Origin: a virus
Reading direction: 5' to 3' (one strand)
IMG/VR virus record: IMGVR_UViG_3300045988_001066
Location: 1-5,718 of that record
DNA length: 5,718 nt
The notes beneath the pieces are model-generated. The model was not told where the DNA came from. It saw only the letters and a program-made list of their open reading frames with translations, and did not search any database. This document shows positions 1 through 5,718 of this stretch, piece by piece; position 1 is the stretch's first letter; every line of letters begins with the position of its first letter. The translations under genes and the position numbers were made by a program.

Positions 1-55
1 AGCGTTCTTGCAATTTCGGTTTTGCCTTCCGCCATCCATTCTTGAGACAGTGTTG
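1..55. repeat. Terminal direct repeat, copy 1 (identical to 5664..5718); signature of a circular genome assembled past its junction
   Basis: agcgttcttgcaatttcggttttgccttccgccatccattcttgagacagtgttg occurs at both window ends, 55/55 identical, offset 5663 nt. It lies inside the VP1 frame, which stays open across the join. Confidence 0.97.
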
Positions 56-1583
56 GTACGGCTTCGTAGTTGTCTGCATAGTGCCAGAAGTCCAGTGTGC
101 CTGTTGCATTACTTCTCATGAGGCCGCTTACGCGGTTTGGCTTCATTCTGTAATCAGCCCATGCCTCCTGGTAGCCGAACGTCTCTTCATCAGTTGCCGT
201 GCCGGTTAGCATGATTTCTTTTTTCTTTACAGGCTGCTCACCTAAGTTTGCGAATTGGGGCACATAGTAGTCCAGCCTGTCTTTTCTGCTCCAGAATCTT
301 TCAAGCCCCTGCTGGTACGTTCTGCTGTGGCGTACGCACAACACACCGATTACGAATCCGTGCTCCTCAAAGCTTTTCGTGAAGGAACTTTCGTTGATAG
401 GCGTTACGGACACTGCGCCGGTTTCGCCAATAGGCGTATCGTTTTCAGTCTGCTGCCCGCTTGTCTGTACAATTTGGTTCATTCCGACTCTGTAGCGTCC
501 ACCGCCGAGATATTCCGGAATCTGTACCGTTTTGTCGCTGATGGTTACATCCCACAGTGCCTGTACCTGTTCGCGGTAGCGGCTTCCGCCTCTTGCCATT
601 GCCTCATAGTACTGCTGCACTGCAATTGCGTTGCGTAGTTCGTTAATGGTTGTTGCTGTGACCGCTGCAAGGTCTGCGTATACATAGCCACTTCCGATTT
701 CTCCATTTTTTCTGTCTGTTCCATCGTACAATAATTGCTTTTTTCTGCTTACGGGATTAGTTGTGTAATTTAAACCTCCCGCTGCGTTTGACGCCTGTGT
801 TTCTCCTAAAACAAATTCCAGGGTACCATAGTCCATTTCATATCCGTGGGAACTTCTTAGTGCTACTGGTGCGTTTCCTGTCATTGGAATTGTGACTTCT
901 GGTCCGCGCTGCGGATAAGGCAGACAGCTTGAGAAGTAATCGTGAAAACGATTGACAGGAAGGCATTGGCCTCCCTTGTACGCTTCTTTGAGAATTGTTT
1001 CGATATCTGCATTTTTTCCGCTGTCGCTGTAGTTAACTTCATCATCATTTTTTACCAATGTTGCCGGGTTTTCTACGTTTTGATCTCTGAAATATTCGTT
1101 CCAGATCAAAACGTATGCTCTGATAGGCAATGCATTGATACTGGTTCTATTTTCGGGTGTCTTGATGCTTTTTGCTGGTATTCCCATATAGTCTAGTATC
1201 GATTCTTCGAATGGGATTTCCATGTTTTTTTCGTTTTCTAGTAAGATTTGTGGTACACTGTACGTTTTGCTTGGCATCCATGCTGTATTGTCTGCTTCTC
1301 CCATGAACGGTTTGAAGTTGTCCCACAGGATACGATTTGGACAATAGAAGTAGTAGAGGTCGAGGAATGCATCGTCCATCACCGGATACTTCGGTGTGGA
1401 CATGCGGATTATCGCGCTGGTGTCTATTTGGAATGTGTCTCCCGGCAGTACTTCGTCTACAAAGAACGGAATGAGCTTGCCGCTGTCGAACGTGGTTAGG
1501 ATTGTCTGGTCACGGTTGAATCGTGTTCTGCTTGTGTGCAATTGCGGTACGTTCAGAAAGTGTTTTTCGTTGTTTCTATTCAT
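1..1583 (-). CDS. VP1: Major capsid protein VP1 (phiX174 F-like capsid family), first 527 codons; continues over the circular junction into 5663..5561 (561 aa in total)
   Basis: Manual reverse-complement translation from ATG 1583..1581 has no stop down to base 1. It begins MNRNNEKHFLNVPQLHTSRTRFNRDQTILTTFDSGKLIPFFVDEVLPGDTF. Blocks I recognise as microvirus capsid hallmarks: LPIRAYVLIWNEYFRD, NRFHDYFSSCLPYPQRG, TINELRNAIAVQQYYEAMARGGSRY, EHGFVIGVLCVRH...YQQG, DYYVPQFANLGEQPV, FGYQEAWADYRMKPNRVSG. The ATG overlaps the VP3 stop (ATGA). Confidence 0.95.
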   Translation of the reverse strand, partial: MNRNNEKHFLNVPQLHTSRTRFNRDQTILTTFDSGKLIPFFVDEVLPGDTFQIDTSAIIRMSTPKYPVMDDAFLDLYYFYCPNRILWDNFKPFMGEADNTAWMPSKTYSVPQILLENEKNMEIPFEESILDYMGIPAKSIKTPENRTSINALPIRAYVLIWNEYFRDQNVENPATLVKNDDEVNYSDSGKNADIETILKEAYKGGQCLPVNRFHDYFSSCLPYPQRGPEVTIPMTGNAPVALRSSHGYEMDYGTLEFVLGETQASNAAGGLNYTTNPVSRKKQLLYDGTDRKNGEIGSGYVYADLAAVTATTINELRNAIAVQQYYEAMARGGSRYREQVQALWDVTISDKTVQIPEYLGGGRYRVGMNQIVQTSGQQTENDTPIGETGAVSVTPINESSFTKSFEEHGFVIGVLCVRHSRTYQQGLERFWSRKDRLDYYVPQFANLGEQPVKKKEIMLTGTATDEETFGYQEAWADYRMKPNRVSGLMRSNATGTLDFWHYADNYEAVPTLSQEWMAEGKTEIART

Positions 1584-1978
1584 TCTGCCGTTTCACTCCG
1601 TTCTTCTGATTTTTCTTCTTGTGCTTTGCTCTGTTCTTCCAGCTCTTTGAGCTTCATTGCGTTGGCTTGCGCCGTTGCAATCATCCGGTGGTATTCGTGA
1701 ATGTTCTGCGGCCATTCTGTCACGTCCATTTCTACGCCATCCATAGCGCCTTGCGACAGGTTTTTCAGGAATTCCGGGTCGAAACTTGCCTTCCGGACAA
1801 TGTTTTTGATGTCGCATTCGTCTGCGTAGCTTTCAATTTCCTGCTGGATGTCGATTGGTTCGGTCTCTTTCAGCTCTTCCTGGCCTTTTTCGTCCTTTGT
1901 CCAGACGTACTGTCTTCGTAGTTTTTCGCCTGAATTTGAAAAGAAGGGCTCTCGCCCTTCCTCGTATCGTTTATTCAT
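1580..1978 (-). CDS. VP3: Internal scaffolding protein VP3-like (132 aa)
   Basis: ATG 1978..1976 is preceded by GGGAGGG 8 nt upstream. The protein is acidic and helical (MNKRYEEGREPFF...KELEEQSKAQEEKSEERSETAE). It sits directly upstream of VP1 and is translationally coupled to it. Assignment rests on size, charge and position as in gokushoviruses rather than on a sharp motif. The track start at 2026 is a TTG inside the preceding ORF. Confidence 0.72.
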   Translation of the reverse strand: MNKRYEEGREPFFSNSGEKLRRQYVWTKDEKGQEELKETEPIDIQQEIESYADECDIKNIVRKASFDPEFLKNLSQGAMDGVEMDVTEWPQNIHEYHRMIATAQANAMKLKELEEQSKAQEEKSEERSETAE

Positions 1979-2210
1979 TCGGCTTGCCCTCCCACACTTT
2001 TTCCTTGTCGTTCGTGAACGTTCCAAGCTCGTCCTCGAACGTTGCCAGCTTGAAGCCGGTGTAGTCCTGCGGACTCTGCCCGATGAAGGTCGTCTTATCC
2101 TTTTCCATTACGTTGCACATGCGTGCAAAGGTTCCGTTGTTTTTGCTTTCGCCTACCCATGCGTAGCACTTTGCTACGTTGTCGTAGATGCCATAGTACA
2201 GATGTTCCAT
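1971..2210 (-). CDS. Small protein (79 aa), possibly the gokushovirus VP5-type nonstructural protein; function unknown
   Basis: The ATG at 2210 has AAAGGAAAG just upstream. The ORF fills the gap between the basic protein and VP3 exactly, and its stop overlaps the VP3 start (AATGAATAA). The N-terminus LYYGIYDNVAKCYAWVGESKNNGTFARMC recalls the xYDxxA....N...A.R motif I associate with small conserved microvirus proteins. That is recollection, not a search result. Confidence 0.6.
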   Translation of the reverse strand: MEHLYYGIYDNVAKCYAWVGESKNNGTFARMCNVMEKDKTTFIGQSPQDYTGFKLATFEDELGTFTNDKEKVWEGKPNE

Positions 2211-2226
2211 TGTTCTTTCCTTTCTC

Positions 2227-2349
2227 TTACAGCCGGATACCGCCGCGCATGGGCTTTTGGCTGAGGTTAATCGTTTTGGTCTTTCGTGCTGTCACGTTAA
2301 ACATTCGGCGGTCTTTTGTGCCGCTCATCTTCTTACGATGCTGTGCCAT
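2227..2349 (-). CDS. Small highly basic protein (40 aa), putative DNA-binding/packaging protein (phiX174 J / chlamydiaphage ORF8 analogue)
   Basis: Found by hand (below the track size cutoff). ATG 2349..2347 lies 7 nt after AAGGGAG. Sequence: MAQHRKKMSGTKDRRMFNVTARKTKTINLSQKPMRGGIRL, stop TAA 2229..2227. About a third of residues are K/R/H, there are no acidic residues except one D, and the C-terminus is RGGIRL. Confidence 0.7.
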   Translation of the reverse strand: MAQHRKKMSGTKDRRMFNVTARKTKTINLSQKPMRGGIRL

Positions 2350-2560
2350 TTTCGTACTCCCTTCTCATTAGTTCCATTTCGATTGCGTTTGCAAAACTTT
2401 TCATCTGCCAGATTTCATCCAGCAGTTTTTTTGCATCGTCGATACTTGAGACTTTTCTTAGCATTTTATAGTTGCCGTCAATCTCTTTGTATTTTCGATT
2501 GAGCAATTCTTCCAATGCGTCTGTGGTGCTGTCCCTGACGCTCCAACTTGTTCTTGTCAT
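2333..2560 (-). CDS. Hypothetical protein (75 aa), predicted helical, no TM segment
   Basis: The ATG at 2560 lies 5 nt after a consensus AAGGAG. It is packed 2 nt after the preceding ORF's stop and overlaps the next gene by 17 nt. There is no competing frame. Confidence 0.62.
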   Translation of the reverse strand: MTRTSWSVRDSTTDALEELLNRKYKEIDGNYKMLRKVSSIDDAKKLLDEIWQMKSFANAIEMELMRREYENGTAS

Positions 2561-2562
2561 TT

Positions 2563-2685
2563 TTACTCCTTTTCGTTTTCGTTGATGCTGTCATGCAGTG
2601 CATGATAGATTTCGTCAAGCTTTTCCAAGATCTGCATCATGAGACGAATTGCCTGCTTGACGTCCTTGATGGAAATAAGTGCCAT
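2563..2685 (-). CDS. Hypothetical small protein (40 aa), heptad-like amphipathic helix
   Basis: Found by hand. ATG 2685..2683 lies 6 nt after AAGGGGG and 1 nt after the M15 stop. Sequence: MALISIKDVKQAIRLMMQILEKLDEIYHALHDSINENEKE, TAA 2565..2563. It exactly fills the gap between two supported genes. Confidence 0.5.
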   Translation of the reverse strand: MALISIKDVKQAIRLMMQILEKLDEIYHALHDSINENEKE

Positions 2686-2686
2686 G

Positions 2687-3079
2687 TTATACCCCCTTTC
2701 TGTAGGCTTTTGTACGTGTGTCAATGTGTACCCATGTGTTGTACACGATAATGCCGCAGCTTTCCGGAATGATTTTGTTCAGTTTGTTGGCAATTTCTTT
2801 TGCGGTCATGCCTTTAATTTGGATGTCTGCTGCCATTCCTCTCATGTGGTATGAGTACTTCGCACCGCCTACTTCTTTATTCCTTGTCGGTGTTCTGTAT
2901 CCGCTGTTTATGTATACTGGCTTTCCGACTTGGTTTCTTAGGATGTCTAGAATAGATACTAGATAGTCATCGATGAATACGACTTGCGAACCATCTTTGC
3001 ACGCAAATTCTCGCACTTTAAAGTGCTGACCTATTTTTTCGTTTGCGTCTGTGTCCATGATATAACATCGGATAGCCAT
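2687..3079 (-). CDS. Zinc cell-wall peptidase, M15 family (Peptidase_M15_3 / VanY-like; 130 aa)
   Basis: Motifs: FKVREFACKDG, NSGYRTPTRNKEVGGAKYSYHMRGMAADI (SxHxxGxAxD) and WVHIDTR (HxD), the His/Asp/His zinc triad layout of M15 peptidases. I prefer the ATG at 3079, 6 nt after GAGAGGTG. The track's 3088 start is the GTG inside that SD. No signal peptide or TM segment. Confidence 0.9.
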   Translation of the reverse strand: MAIRCYIMDTDANEKIGQHFKVREFACKDGSQVVFIDDYLVSILDILRNQVGKPVYINSGYRTPTRNKEVGGAKYSYHMRGMAADIQIKGMTAKEIANKLNKIIPESCGIIVYNTWVHIDTRTKAYRKGV

Positions 3080-3103
3080 GTTGTTCACCTCTCTTCATTT
3101 CGT

Positions 3104-3132
3104 ATTTTACTTTTTTTTTAATCGCTTGTCAA
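3104..3132 (-). promoter_or_regulatory. Sigma70-type promoter driving the gene array (-35 TTGACA 3132..3127, 17-nt spacer, -10 TAAAAT 3109..3104)
   Basis: The minus strand reads attcaaaacaaaaaacagTTGACAagcgattaaaaaaaaagTAAAATacgaaatgaagagaggtgaacaacATG. The -35 is perfect, the spacer optimal and the -10 matches 5/6. An A-rich UP-like tract lies upstream and the first gene about 25 nt downstream. Confidence 0.72.
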
Positions 3133-3150
3133 CTGTTTTTTGTTTTGAAT

Positions 3151-3222
3151 GGCGCTTTAGCGCCTTGCCGTATGGAGCGCAGCGGAATGCGGCTTAATCC
3201 ATTCCTTTTTAGCGCTGTGCGC
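3151..3222. other. Cluster of short GC-rich inverted repeats upstream of the promoter
   Basis: GGCGC-ttta-GCGCC (3151..3164). GGAATG-10 nt-CATTCC (3184..3205) followed by TTTTT on the plus strand. Flanking GCGCAGC (3177..3183) / GCTGtgCGC (3214..3222) can pair with a 2-nt bulge. Confidence 0.4.
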
Positions 3223-3272
3223 GTTTATGCCGCTTTATTATATAACTTGTTGTAGGAGTAGTAGTAGGTACT

Positions 3273-3445
3273 GTTGAAAAGTTGAAAGTAGTAAAAATTA
3301 CTCGTTATCACGTGATAATTAAGAAATATTATCAGTTGAAAAAATTGTTGAAAAATTGTTGAAATGTTGAATGTTCGTCATTATGACTAATTTTATTGTG
3401 CACTTTTATGTTGAAAACCTGTTGAAAGTGTTGAAACTGTTGAAA
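3273..3445 (+). repeat. Iteron-like array: ten direct copies of GTTGAA(A/T), mostly TGTTGAAA, in three clusters
   Basis: Copies start at 3273 and 3281; at 3335, 3347, 3358 and 3366 (the last is GTTGAAT); and at 3410, 3421, 3430 and 3439. All are in one orientation, with spacing of 8 to 12 nt within clusters. Each copy ends in an A-tract. Confidence 0.9.
3305..3334. promoter_or_regulatory. Operator-like palindromes built from TGATAA(T) half-sites
   Basis: TTATCAcgTGATAA is a perfect 14-bp palindrome (3305..3318). It shares its right half with TGATAAT-8 nt-ATTATCA (3313..3334). The site lies between iteron clusters 1 and 2. Confidence 0.45.
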
Positions 3446-3452
3446 ACTAATT

Positions 3453-3499
3453 TACGCGCATGTGCGCGTGCGCGTTTCGCGCGCGTGCGCATGTGCGTA
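3453..3499. repeat. Imperfect 22-bp palindrome made of strictly alternating purine-pyrimidine sequence (cruciform / Z-DNA-prone / RNA hairpin)
   Basis: taCGCGCATGTGCGCGTGCGCG-ttt-CGCGCGCGTGCGCATGTGCGta. Pairing i+j=6952 gives 18 Watson-Crick pairs plus 4 G.T pairs (3458/3494, 3463/3489, 3466/3486, 3469/3483) on the plus strand. Purines and pyrimidines alternate without a break over 3453..3475 and 3478..3500. Confidence 0.85.
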
Positions 3500-3508
3500 C
3501 TAGCGGCA

Positions 3509-3524
3509 GCCCCATGATTGGGGC
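3509..3524. other. Small hairpin GCCCCA-tgat-TGGGGC
   Basis: A 6-bp inverted repeat with a 4-nt loop, between the GC palindrome and the plus-strand terminator. Confidence 0.35.
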
Positions 3525-3531
3525 GCGACGC

Positions 3532-3565
3532 AAGGGGTTGACTTTTAAGTCAACCCCTTTTATTT
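3532..3565 (+). terminator. Intrinsic (rho-independent) terminator oriented on the plus strand, antisense to all genes
   Basis: AAGGGGTTGACTT-tt-AAGTCAACCCCTT is a perfect inverted repeat (3532..3559). On the plus strand it runs straight into TTTTATTT. On the minus strand the same stem is followed by GCGTCGCG, with no U-tract. Both arms carry the GTTGA core of the iterons. Confidence 0.6.
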
Positions 3566-3602
3566 ACTGACTAGGCTGATACATGGAGTCTTTAAACTAT
3601 TA

Positions 3603-3636
3603 TAGCCCAGTACCTTACTTGATAGGTACTGGGCTA
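3603..3636 (-). terminator. 13-bp perfect hairpin 10 nt after the VP4 stop: candidate VP4 terminator and/or replication-origin hairpin
   Basis: tAGCCCAGTACCT-tacttgat-AGGTACTGGGCTa. On the minus strand it is followed by an A/T-rich but only weakly U-rich tail (TAATAGTTTAAAG). Confidence 0.45.
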
Positions 3637-3646
3637 GGTGACACCG

Positions 3647-4666
3647 TTAGAGTGTCCCACTCTTCTTCATTTGCTTTTTGATCACTCTTTCTTTTGTCTT
3701 GCATTGTTCTGCAAAGTCTGTATTTTCATATTTTAGCCGGTTTTCTGCTATGGCTGCTGCCTGTCTGCTTTGTTTAATTCTCCACAATCTTTGTGGGTTT
3801 TCGGCTTCCATCATTTTTTCATAATAACGTGGAATTTGCGCTTTCTTTCCGTTTGTACATTGGATGTATCCTTGTCTCCATATTTCTTCTTTGTGTTCTT
3901 GGTAATAGTGGTCTCCTAGTCCGGGTTTTAAGCTCATGCACGCGAATGGCTTTTGTTGACCTAACTCGTAGTATTGGTTTGCTTTCTTTCCGTCTATCTC
4001 GTACATTTTTTTTGTTACGTATCCTGCAACATATCTATATGTCTCTGGTACTGCTTGTGCTATCTGTATTTGACCCATGCCCCATAGGTCTGCTAGCCAT
4101 TGGCTTGTGAAGTATCCGTTGTGCTGTATCTTGTACAGGTGTTTCAGGTCTGTTGGTTGCCATCCATATAGTATCATGTGGTAATGTGGCCTTGCTGTCT
4201 GTTCTCCATACTCTCCTGCCACAAAATAGCGTAATTTGCCCCTGTAAGCCTTCCTAAGGCGTTTTAGAAATTTTTGAATGTCAGTATACAGTAATGTTTG
4301 TACGCTCTCAGGAGTCTTCTTTCCTGGCTTCCAGACGTATTGCACTTTCCTCATGATTTCGCCTGTGTTTATGATCATTCCTGGTACATGGTTATCATCG
4401 TATGTTAGCGTGATAAACCATACTTCTTCTTTGGGATAATCTCGTGCTTCTAATTCTATTCGTGTTGTCCAGTCTTCTCTTTGTCTTATTCTGCATCCGA
4501 TGCACTGCCCGCATGGTATTAACATGGCATCTTTTCTGTACATCAAATCTTCATATTTTAGCTGTTTTCCCGCTAACTGAGAAAAGCGGGAGAGTGAATA
4601 CACCCTCCCGCTAATGTCTTTGTCGTTAGGGTTGTACAGCCTTATTAATGGCTTGTAACAACTCAT
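3647..4666 (-). CDS. VP4: Rolling-circle replication initiation protein VP4 (HUH endonuclease superfamily, 339 aa)
   Basis: N-terminal cysteine cluster PCGQCIGCRIRQ, motif 1 FITLTYD, motif 2 ARPHYHMILYG, catalytic-Tyr motif 3 YVAGYVTKK. The ATG overlaps the VP2 stop (ATGA at 4666..4663). Confidence 0.95.
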   Translation of the reverse strand: MSCYKPLIRLYNPNDKDISGRVYSLSRFSQLAGKQLKYEDLMYRKDAMLIPCGQCIGCRIRQREDWTTRIELEARDYPKEEVWFITLTYDDNHVPGMIINTGEIMRKVQYVWKPGKKTPESVQTLLYTDIQKFLKRLRKAYRGKLRYFVAGEYGEQTARPHYHMILYGWQPTDLKHLYKIQHNGYFTSQWLADLWGMGQIQIAQAVPETYRYVAGYVTKKMYEIDGKKANQYYELGQQKPFACMSLKPGLGDHYYQEHKEEIWRQGYIQCTNGKKAQIPRYYEKMMEAENPQRLWRIKQSRQAAAIAENRLKYENTDFAEQCKTKERVIKKQMKKSGTL

Positions 4667-5520
4667 CTTAGGTAATCACCCGGCTTTCTTTTTTCCCCGT
4701 AGGATCCTGTTTTGTTCTGTGGTGCTTGATAGTTGCTTTTTCTGTCGTTCTTTTTTGGTACGTTTTTGTCAATCGCTTTGCTTGTGTCGTCTCCGATTTT
4801 TGTTAGTGCTTTTTGTAACCCGTATGGGCTCATGTGTGTGCTGCTGAGCATTTGCTGCCAGCTTTGTGCTGCATTGTACCAGTCACTTTTGCTCCAACTT
4901 GTGCTTTCATATGCGTTAGGCACAAATCCTCCGCTTCGGCTTACTCCTAGTGCACTGCTGCTTGCAAGTCCCATGCTTGCCCCGCTGATCGTTCCCGCGC
5001 TTCCGCCCGGTGTGCTTGCTCCACCGTTTGAGAATGCTAGAATCGGGTTAAGCCCCGCTTTTTTCATATCTTCTACGGCTCTTTGATATGCTGTGCTGCT
5101 CATGTGCTCTTGCCATTCACGGTTTGCTTGTGCTTCTGCGCTGTTGTAGTTCATTGCTACGCTGTTCTCGATGTGGTTGTATACGCCTTGCATGATTGCT
5201 TGTAGCGTGTTATAACCCATCTGTTTAAGCATACTTTGACTGTTGTATTTGCCCTGCATGGCTGCTTCTTGCCCTTGGTATGCGTATGCCTGCTTGAGCC
5301 AGTCATTGACCTGTTGCACGTTGGTGCCTGATTGGCTTCCGCTTTCGGAGTGTCCACCGCCTTCTTGTGTGCTTCCTCCGCTGCTTTGGCTGTTGCCTGT
5401 CTGTCCCCATCCGCCTAATGCTCCTGCGATTTGCTTTCCAGCATTCGCAAATGTTCCAACTGTGTTTGCAACGTTTCCGGCTATGTTGAGCGCTGTTAAC
5501 AGTCCTGATAATCCTGCCAT
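4663..5520 (-). CDS. VP2: DNA pilot / minor capsid protein VP2 (285 aa)
   Basis: The N-terminal third is Gly/Ser/Ala-rich (MAGLSGLLTALNIAGNVANTVG...GGSTQEGGGHSESGSQSG). The conserved-looking core is SSTAYQRAVEDMKKAGLNPILAF, which I recognise from gokushovirus VP2 proteins. The gene sits directly downstream of VP1. Confidence 0.88.
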   Translation of the reverse strand: MAGLSGLLTALNIAGNVANTVGTFANAGKQIAGALGGWGQTGNSQSSGGSTQEGGGHSESGSQSGTNVQQVNDWLKQAYAYQGQEAAMQGKYNSQSMLKQMGYNTLQAIMQGVYNHIENSVAMNYNSAEAQANREWQEHMSSTAYQRAVEDMKKAGLNPILAFSNGGASTPGGSAGTISGASMGLASSSALGVSRSGGFVPNAYESTSWSKSDWYNAAQSWQQMLSSTHMSPYGLQKALTKIGDDTSKAIDKNVPKKNDRKSNYQAPQNKTGSYGEKRKPGDYLR

Positions 5521-5522
5521 TT

Positions 5523-5550
5523 AAAAAATAGCCCGGGTTTTGCCCGGGCT
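5523..5550 (-). terminator. Intrinsic terminator/attenuator hairpin between VP1 and VP2
   Basis: The minus strand reads AGCCCGGG-caaaa-CCCGGGCT (5550..5530) followed by ATTTTTT (5529..5523). The hairpin starts 10 nt after the VP1 stop. Confidence 0.7.
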
Positions 5551-5551
5551 T

Positions 5552-5558
5552 CCTCCTT
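5552..5558 (-). promoter_or_regulatory. Consensus Shine-Dalgarno AAGGAGG separated from the VP2 ATG by the terminator hairpin
   Basis: The minus strand reads TAAgaAAGGAGGa[hairpin]attttttaaATG. The SD is 31 nt from the ATG in linear sequence and about 10 nt if the 21-nt hairpin is closed. Confidence 0.5.
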
Positions 5559-5560
5559 TC

Positions 5561-5718
5561 TTACAGTTTGTACAAGCCCGGTACACTGTACAAGGGCATA
5601 CAACGTGTGGTCTTGTTTGCTACGCGGATTGCGCCAAAGAATTGGTCTTCTTTCTGTTCAATGAGCGTTCTTGCAATTTCGGTTTTGCCTTCCGCCATCC
5701 ATTCTTGAGACAGTGTTG
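5561..5718 (-). CDS. VP1: Major capsid protein VP1, C-terminal end (unique part 5561..5663; 5664..5718 duplicates 1..55)
   Basis: The frame carried over from base 1 reads ...TLSQEWMAEGKTEIARTLIEQKEDQFFGAIRVANKTTRCMPLYSVPGLYKL then TAA at 5563..5561. 1583 + 103 nt = 1686 nt = 561 codons plus stop. Confidence 0.93.
   Translation of the reverse strand, partial: TLSQEWMAEGKTEIARTLIEQKEDQFFGAIRVANKTTRCMPLYSVPGLYKL
5664..5718. repeat. Terminal direct repeat, copy 2 (identical to 1..55)
   Basis: Same 55-mer as 1..55; see copy 1. Confidence 0.97.

Follow-up and report, generated by a model that had tools for sequence, protein, structure and literature searches.

The hairpin analyzed here lies at positions 3532 to 3559 of a 5,718-nucleotide stretch of viral DNA (IMG/VR record IMGVR_UViG_3300045988_001066, positions 1 to 5,718), hereafter the window. 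The window is a circular gokushovirus genome of ~5,663 nt (its first 55 bases recur at 5664–5718) in which all recognizable genes, as judged from the open reading frame (ORF) list, a profile search, and tblastn, are on the − strand; the hairpin falls inside the sole long non-coding region of the genome, 3089–3646. An earlier note on this DNA had proposed the hairpin as the terminator of a candidate small antisense RNA pointing against all genes. Our analysis instead favors, tentatively and at a little under an even chance, the reading that the hairpin would be an optional single-stranded DNA (ssDNA) structural module beside a rolling-circle origin, on the probably packaged + strand. The + strand is probably the viral strand because it bears a family-wide, origin-like hairpin with the motif CTTG|ATA (the bar marks the nick). 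As an isolated terminator, the site is ordinary; its interest lies in the adjoining origin-like hairpin and in the likely reversed polarity of the genome.

The 13-nt arms of the hairpin, AAGGGGTTGACTT (3532–3544) and AAGTCAACCCCTT (3547–3559), are 100% complementary and fold on the + strand into a perfect 12-bp stem with 6 G-C pairs and a 4-nt loop (AAGGGGTTGACT-TTTA-AGTCAACCCCTT; RNA folding energy −19.0 kcal/mol), which is followed by TTATTTAC, so that the element as a whole spans 3532–3567. The shape of an intrinsic terminator—i.e., a stable GC-rich stem-loop and then a U-rich tract, TTTTATTT—was found on the + strand only, since the gene-strand version of the palindrome (−19.6 kcal/mol) runs on into GCGTCGCG and has no U-tract. 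In this respect, palindrome search and folding gave exactly what the earlier note had described, and its other elements, namely the long G·U-containing hairpin at 3453–3499, a small hairpin at 3509–3524, and the TGTTGAAA repeats, are likewise all present. A perfect stem of at least 10 bp followed by at least five T in eight bases had a single occurrence in the genome, on the + strand, and none in 300 dinucleotide-preserving shuffles. A looser terminator scan found 7 sites in the genome against 7.8 expected, and we calculated that on a strand with 37% T any 8-nt stretch has a ~13% chance of holding at least five T. The significance of the site therefore lies in the long perfect palindrome and not in the T-run, which is unremarkable behind one of four hairpins on such a strand.

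The small hairpin at 3509–3524 (+ strand, GCCCCA-TGAT-TGGGGC) accompanies the large one always in relatives, and a conserved unstructured spacer at 3568–3602 (+ strand, CTGACTAGGCTGATACATGGAGTCTTTAAACTATT) links the hairpin cluster to the origin-like hairpin. When 185,579 bacterial species genomes were scanned for the large hairpin, no exact copy and no clue to the host were found. Hairpins of the type AAGGGGnTGAC...GTCAnCCCCTT were common in bacterial genomes, and a T- or A-run flanks ~75% of them on one side or both; this degenerate pattern is a generic terminator-like shape. A similar scan for the small hairpin, GCCCCANGANTGGGGC, was too unspecific, with unrelated phages among the matches listed.

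The origin-like hairpin starts 44 nt downstream of the terminator-like hairpin on the same + strand, at 3603–3641 (stem-loop 3603–3636, 13 bp), and consists of TAGCCCAGTACC-TTACTTGATA-GGTACTGGGCTA, then GGTGA. For intergenic comparisons, we used 61 relatives with a complete intergenic region; among the versions listed from these, the loop TTACTTGATA was identical in all but one, and the stem covaried (C-G to A-T). The cleavage decamer of phiX174 gene A is CAACTTG|ATA, with the nick at the bar. The window loop contains CTTGATA and matches 8 of the 10 bases of this decamer, and the pC194-type origin used with RepH (TTCTTATCTTGATAATAAGG) holds the same heptamer (PMC7072734). The genome also encodes a Rep of the cognate type: VP4 (3647–4666, − strand) is a rolling-circle replication initiator of the HUH class (Pfam PF23343, REP_ORF2-G2P family, E = 2.6e-18), and it is the protein expected to recognize the hairpin. 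The window thus combines the two features of a phiX174/pC194-type origin that we looked for, a CTTG|ATA nick motif and an HUH Rep homologous to those acting at the phiX174 gene A and pC194-pUB110 origins. The settings differ, however. In phiX174, the site is part of the coding strand of gene A and no hairpin loop holds it; in the window, the site of predicted cleavage is non-coding, occupies the loop of a hairpin whose stem covaries, and is on the strand that carries none of the genes.

Counterparts of this hairpin were found well beyond the relatives of the window. In the Chlamydia phage Chp2 (L092, 2896–2945), the gap between VP3 and ORF8 holds AGCGTATAACAG-tcTACTTGATc-TGTTATACGCT-AGGTGA on the gene strand, and SpV4 has ACTTGAT-N11-AGGTGA, also on the gene strand. 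Scanning IMG/VR for TACTTGAT-N12-AGGTGA returned at least 120 contigs, and in the microvirus-sized matches listed, the N12 pairs with the bases preceding the loop, giving self-complementary stems of many different sequences. That many stems go with one loop suggests that the structure is recognized through the loop. From the loop with CTTGATA and the identity of VP4 as an HUH Rep, we consider the TACTTGAT/AGGTGA hairpin the best candidate, on sequence grounds, for the gokushovirus rolling-circle origin. It would be a family-wide candidate that is so far undescribed, as no description of a gokushovirus origin hairpin or of virion-strand polarity was found in the literature searched. Read on the gene strand, the same hairpin stands directly after the VP4 stop codon and has a T-rich tail there in roughly 25 of the 61 relatives, so that, judging from its sequence, it probably doubles as the VP4 terminator.

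Upstream of the small hairpin lies the third element of the cluster, a GC-rich imperfect palindrome of ~21–22 bp at 3453–3499 (+ strand), made of GCGCGTGC-like units and carrying four G·T(U) wobbles on the + strand, which become A·C on the gene strand. In the 40 distinct versions of this palindrome found in relatives, we counted 152 G·T against 35 A·C on the anti-gene strand, and the pairs covary. The units are direct, which leaves both arms enriched in G and T; almost every relative has about four G·T on one strand, and the palindrome is never perfect. This imperfection may prevent cruciform extrusion in duplex DNA, or may mark the folding strand. With RNA parameters, the 164 nt from 3407 to 3570 folded to −82.8 kcal/mol on the + strand (z = −10) and to −64.8 kcal/mol on the − strand; with DNA parameters, 3440–3650 gave −63.7 versus −56.7 kcal/mol, the z score of the hairpins being −10.6. 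Across the region from the VP4 stop codon to the conserved iteron cassette described below, the + strand folded better in 59 of the 61 relatives.

To place this cluster in a wider context, counts of structure, composition, and polarity were taken from the matches listed (at least 120) of the IMG/VR motif scan, together with the reference genomes, and all such counts below refer to these. On the motif strand, the 150 nt lying 5′ of the motif were more stable than the genome mean by >1 standard deviation in 26 of 39 genomes with genes on the same strand as the motif and in 31 of 38 with genes on the opposite strand. Conversely, the 150 nt 3′ of the motif exceeded this value in just 7 of 39 and 5 of 38, respectively. 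The window cluster at 3453–3559 is this family-wide structured zone 5′ of the motif.

Rolling-circle plasmids place the single-strand origin (sso) just upstream of the double-strand origin. Conditional on the origin assignment, the window cluster, 44–150 nt 5′ of the CTTG|ATA hairpin, occupies the corresponding position, and its stems are maintained by compensatory changes. Together with plasmid sso elements (ssoA, ssoU) and phage complementary-strand origins (M13, G4, and the phiX174 primosome assembly site), it shares the form of a non-coding cluster of imperfect hairpins, ~100–150 nt long, which in the window may likewise work in one strand only. The position of an sso is flexible, its orientation is specific, and RNA polymerase primes ssoA, a folded element of ~160 nt (PMC5703833); intergenic hairpins of other microviruses have previously been proposed as complementary-strand signals (PMC9865509). 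The window cluster differs from known sso elements in having no sequence similarity to them, a stem with a −35-like TTGACT and no −10, and a module that is optional among close relatives, and its function as an sso is a candidate one. The earlier note had offered a complementary-strand-origin-like element in ssDNA as its fallback; this part fits the evidence better than the antisense RNA does, although of the promoter-like fold that it envisaged, the stem has only the TTGACT and no −10 box.

The orientation of genes relative to the motif divides the family. When tblastn was used to locate VP1 and VP4 at the distinct motif loci, 35 loci, Chp2 among them, had both genes on the motif strand and 34 had both on the strand opposite to it; a further 7 loci were not from microviruses. 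The opposite group comprises the whole clade of the window and, in addition, unrelated environmental gokushoviruses of 4.2–4.6 kb (L114, L151, L167, and L192), whose VP1 has 41–47% identity to the VP1 of the window or of Chp2, whichever query matched better. Base composition at fourfold sites followed this division. With the motif on the gene strand, gene-strand A was 0.22 and T 0.39, and T exceeded A in 28 of 39 genomes; with the motif on the opposite strand, gene-strand A was 0.47 and T 0.15, and A exceeded T in 34 of 38, the 4 exceptions likely being microvirus-sized chance matches without a VP1 or VP4 hit (L096, L138, L140, and L174). Fourfold-site composition thus tracks the motif strand and not the gene strand. 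The preference of ssDNA phages for NNT codons has been put down to pressure from C to T acting on the strand that is packaged (PMC3278643). At third codon positions of VP4, VP2, and the M15 peptidase gene, the window has A 0.37–0.46 and T 0.10–0.15, compared to T 0.40–0.45 in Chp2. The synonymous skew of the window is extreme, and it is a mirror image of that of Chp2 and SpV4 and of the NNT bias of ssDNA phages.

Substitutions pointed the same way. We confirmed 233 relatives of VP4 in IMG/VR, the best 80 of which are all at least 90% identical, and polarized changes in 80 VP4 genes by parsimony. On the gene strand, G>A exceeded C>T per base, by 2392 versus 1640 at third positions and 837 versus 203 at first positions, and C>A far exceeded G>T (713 versus 119). 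This gene-strand excess of G>A and C>A amounts to an excess of C>T and G>T on the + strand, the reverse of what damage associated with transcription would be expected to leave. All of these sequence patterns would be most simply explained together if the + strand of the window is the nicked, displaced, and packaged strand. If so, the premise of the earlier note, a hairpin pointing against a one-strand genome, is probably inverted, as it is the + strand that carries the family-wide, origin-like CTTG|ATA hairpin. More broadly, we give about an even chance to the proposal, drawn from these comparisons, that the abundant gut clade of the window is negative-sense, as are one or more unrelated environmental clades, with virions that would carry the antisense strand, that the hairpins considered here would then lie in the complementary-strand origin, and that Gokushovirinae would have seen at least two reversals of gene polarity with respect to the origin.

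Virion DNA complementary to the mRNAs is known from anelloviruses, and, if the + strand is packaged, the virion DNA of the window would likewise be complementary to all of its mRNAs. Anelloviruses, geminiviruses, and circoviruses (negative-sense or ambisense ssDNA viruses of eukaryotes) are an analogy of polarity only, with no homology implied. Microviridae, unlike these negative-sense viruses, are described as positive-sense, and a single complementary-strand ORF in this family was called "highly unusual" (Roux et al. 2012; PMC3394797).

From the anatomy, conservation pattern, motif orientation, and composition asymmetries observed here, we infer a sequence of events at the origin. VP4 would nick the + strand in the loop, at TTACTTG|ATA, the predicted substrate being TTACTTGATAGG / TAGCCCAGTACCTTACTTGATAGGTACTGGGCTAGGTGA with the cut between G and A. 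The + strand would then be displaced and packaged, so that the virion strand in this clade would be complementary to all genes. The hairpins, being just 5′ of the nick, would be the last part to be displaced and would fold in single-stranded + DNA, where they may help to start complementary-strand synthesis or assist origin function, as sso elements do in rolling-circle plasmids and ssDNA phages. The T-run would be a lineage-specific trait of a T-drifting strand, which could incidentally stop stray + transcription in the double-stranded form, with no RNA gene involved.

Several points weigh against this interpretation. The nick position of VP4 and the virion strand are both deduced from sequence alone. 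The match to phiX174 and pC194 is short, and the motif match alone is not significant in the window, where 5 matches with at most two mismatches were found against 5.5 expected; what gives it weight is where it lies and that it is conserved throughout the family. A folding advantage of the + strand, 3.4 ± 7.1 kcal/mol per 205 nt, is seen in coding windows as well, and this smaller bias indicates that composition contributes to the folding asymmetry. The G·T asymmetry may similarly reflect the G+T-rich composition of the + strand, and in the stems of origin hairpins whose genes are on the motif strand there is no G·T excess (11 G·T versus 18 A·C), compared to 16 versus 5 in the opposite group. 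Nor is the substitution asymmetry independent of composition, and no more than two independent clades make up the opposite group. Most relatives lack the hairpin module, which therefore cannot be essential; its 12-bp stem is too short for both promoter-like boxes, unlike the origins of M13 or ssoA; and BLASTN of 3140–3646 against 72,556 plasmids returned chance-level hits only, with no similarity to a known plasmid sso. Finally, phiMH2K (L093) has the same A-rich gene-strand composition and yet no motif on its anti-gene strand, which means that composition alone is not decisive. The gene strand of this cultured Bdellovibrio phage is rich in A and C (third positions A 0.37–0.51, G 0.08–0.10), and only a weak hairpin, atggatag-ACTTTGAT-ctattcat, was found, on the gene strand near 3903. 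We had considered phiMH2K as a cultured example of reversed polarity and set it aside, because its composition fits but the motif is not on the anti-gene strand.

The conservation of the terminator-like hairpin was examined next to that of its T-run. A 28-mer of the hairpin is exact in 9 IMG/VR contigs, and the hairpin with its variants occurs in 12 distinct genomes, counting the window, while most relatives are without it. In 11 of the 12, it differs from the window by at most one loop base or by one compensated stem pair; the one stem variant is a compensatory T-A to C-G change, and loop length is 3–4 nt among carriers. A T-rich tail follows in 6 of the 12, namely the window, L005, L006, and L007 (TTATT[TC]AC or TTGTCCAC) and L298 and L088 (TTTATTCAC), whereas the remaining 6 have TGAATCAC in place of the T-run. 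On our reading of these sequences, the T-run of the window would derive from TGAATCAC by roughly three substitutions (G>T, A>T, and C>T) in a T-enriching strand. Terminator-like sites on the anti-gene strand of the intergenic region were found in 6 of the 61 relatives and on the gene strand in 30, the latter mostly being the hairpin after VP4 with TTTGTCGTCT or a similar tail. The earlier note had named conservation of the terminator asymmetry in relatives as its own test; with a T-run in half of the carriers and no hairpin in most relatives, the asymmetry proved not to be conserved.

Between the hairpin cluster and the main promoter lies a conserved iteron cassette, here SEG (3231–3447, no strand assigned), which has a TATATAACTTGTTGTAGGAGTAGTAGTAGG head, ~12 TGTTGAAA repeats, and a dyad, TTCGTCATTATGAC, and which holds the iteron clusters of the earlier note. 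Conservation of SEG is 75–84% in 59 GenBank gokushoviruses, and nearly every IMG/VR relative whose sequence reaches across this stretch has it. Six of the 61 genomes, the window among them, carry it inverted with respect to both the genes and the origin hairpin; the remaining 55 have the other orientation. The inverted alleles are 89–94% alike (that of the window 82–83%), while the VP4 genes of their genomes are scattered among those of common-orientation genomes. Since the alleles cluster and the genomes do not, the inversion appears to be an old alternative arrangement that has spread by recombination. Short GC-rich inverted repeats flank the cassette (AGCGCTGT / ACAGCGCT, CGCGCA). Because it works in either orientation, SEG probably acts as double-stranded, protein-binding DNA and not as a transcript or an ssDNA signal, and its inversion further undermines the proposed 145-nt RNA. 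As alternative nick sites, we considered AACTTGTTG of SEG and, on the complementary strand, the pMV158-like TACTACGAC; both were rejected because the orientation of the cassette flips and the hairpin loop fits the known motif better.

Set against the same observations, an RNA explanation of the hairpin appears unlikely. It would be a genuine intrinsic terminator, either of a small non-coding + RNA or as an insulator that stops + transcription from the cassette before it becomes antisense to VP4. The geometry is that of a textbook terminator (12-bp stem, −19 kcal/mol, UUUUAUUU tail), with the GC-rich perfect stem, tetraloop, and 3′ U-run of the class; the site faces the gene-strand terminator-like hairpin after VP4, as with convergent transcription units; and the G·U wobbles of the upstream long hairpin favor the + strand. 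The second allele with a compensated stem also keeps its T-run (L298 and L088, TTTTTATTC), and L064 has on the same strand a different hairpin, AGGGGGTAGGCC...GGCCTACCCCCT, followed by ATTTTG. What is missing is a transcription unit for it to end. The promoter hexamers listed in the earlier note are where it placed them, but none passes a 9-of-12 promoter scan, and the sole + promoter-like match in the region, TTATCA-16-TATTAT at 3305–3332 (9 of 12 matches), is specific to the window, being absent from the three closest relatives, in which that segment is entirely different. No + gene was found upstream of the terminator either. A perfect palindrome, TTATCACGTGATAA, at 3305–3318, in the variable center of the cassette, overlaps this promoter-like match; it was seen in the window only and not in L005, L006, or L007. 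The + ORF at 3371–3517 (48 aa) was rejected as a gene, as it has no Pfam match and spans the cassette and the GC palindrome, two elements whose arrangement differs in most relatives, and a + frame from the ATG at 3365 stops after 7 codons (by eye).

The body of the proposed RNA fared no better. Searching the whole window against Rfam 15 at E values up to 10 gave only sub-threshold, microRNA-like matches to the GC palindrome (22 bits versus a gathering score of 90), and the RNA would overlap no gene and so be antisense to nothing. Most of it is iteron cassette, which is oppositely oriented in 55 of the 61 relatives. The T-run is replaced by TGAATCAC in half of the carriers, a terminator-like site stands on this strand in few relatives, and T-runs are to be expected on a strand so rich in T. 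Compensatory changes were found in all stems, but they are equally compatible with a DNA fold. As for the insulator, the idea that the T-run occurs only where the cassette points at VP4 held for the first 9 relatives and was then refuted by L298 and L088, which keep the T-run with the cassette reversed, and by L001, L029, and L031, which share the cassette orientation of the window yet have no hairpin. An antisense RNA with its own promoter and terminator is thus not supported, for want of a conserved + promoter, an Rfam match, and a conserved terminator. The site departs from known intrinsic terminators in lacking an upstream promoter or gene on its strand, in its non-conserved U-run, and in lying on what is probably the template-independent viral strand.

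The palindrome could also act in duplex DNA, as an operator-like 13-bp dyad to which a dimeric protein of the host or phage would bind on the replicative form, for instance to regulate genes or to serve the origin. Its arms are perfectly symmetric, it is placed in the control region close to the origin-like hairpin, and its sequence is nearly invariant in relatives whose adjoining GC palindrome varies freely. However, we think this quite improbable, as loop length varies by one nucleotide among carriers, the module is optional, and no candidate binding protein was identified; the sole variant compensates in both arms and keeps pairing and dyad alike, so that it does not discriminate. A role in gene-strand RNA we regard as very unlikely. 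The palindrome would there be part of a read-through VP4 mRNA, where it would stabilize the 3′ end as a stem-loop or back up the VP4 terminator as a second barrier. It folds equally well on that strand, 88 nt past the VP4 stop codon, and the weak T-tail of the hairpin after VP4 in the window (TAATAGTTT) makes read-through plausible, but the adjoining long hairpin is clearly worse there, with its A·C mismatches, and most relatives do without the module. Each of these alternatives explains fewer observations than an ssDNA element does.

Should the ssDNA-element reading and the reversed polarity hold, the consequences would extend beyond this hairpin. About half of the distinct motif-bearing genomes among the matches listed have all genes on the other strand, which would overturn the textbook view of Microviridae as uniformly positive-sense. 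It would also account for the unusual preference of gut gokushoviruses for A-rich codons, and would affect strand-specific virome data and the design of primers and probes for one of the commonest phage groups of the human and pig gut.

The remaining genes of the window are those of a gokushovirus, and its nearest public relatives are gut gokushoviruses from the feces of human, pig, and monkey. On the − strand, VP2 lies at 5520–4663, VP1 at 1583–1, continuing at 5663–5561, and the VP3 scaffold gene at 2026–1580; a VP5-like ORF is on the same strand. A strong gene-strand terminator (5550–5530, − strand) stands after VP1 and upstream of VP2. Upstream of an M15_3 peptidase gene (3088–2687, − strand; a probable endolysin, with a likely true start at the ATG at 3079) is the best sigma-70-type promoter of the genome, close to consensus (3132–3104, − strand, TTGACA-17-TAAAAT, 11 of 12 matches), and relatives carry a similar TTGACA promoter. 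The peptidase gene is the first after this main promoter. Such peptidase genes in gut gokushoviruses have been linked to Faecalibacterium and other Clostridiales (Roux et al. 2012; PMC3394797), a link that, by analogy, hints at a Gram-positive host for the phage of the window.

Some members of the clade are recorded in IMG/VR at ~1.5–2 genome lengths (L012, 10,711 nt; L021, 10,917 nt; and L034, 8,781 nt), and these over-long records may be concatemers or assembly artifacts; L034 gave no match to the iteron cassette. Another conserved small hairpin, GGCGCTTTAGCGCC, was observed at 3150–3163, in the stretch that separates the cassette from the main promoter, and its orientation relative to the genes was constant in all relatives.

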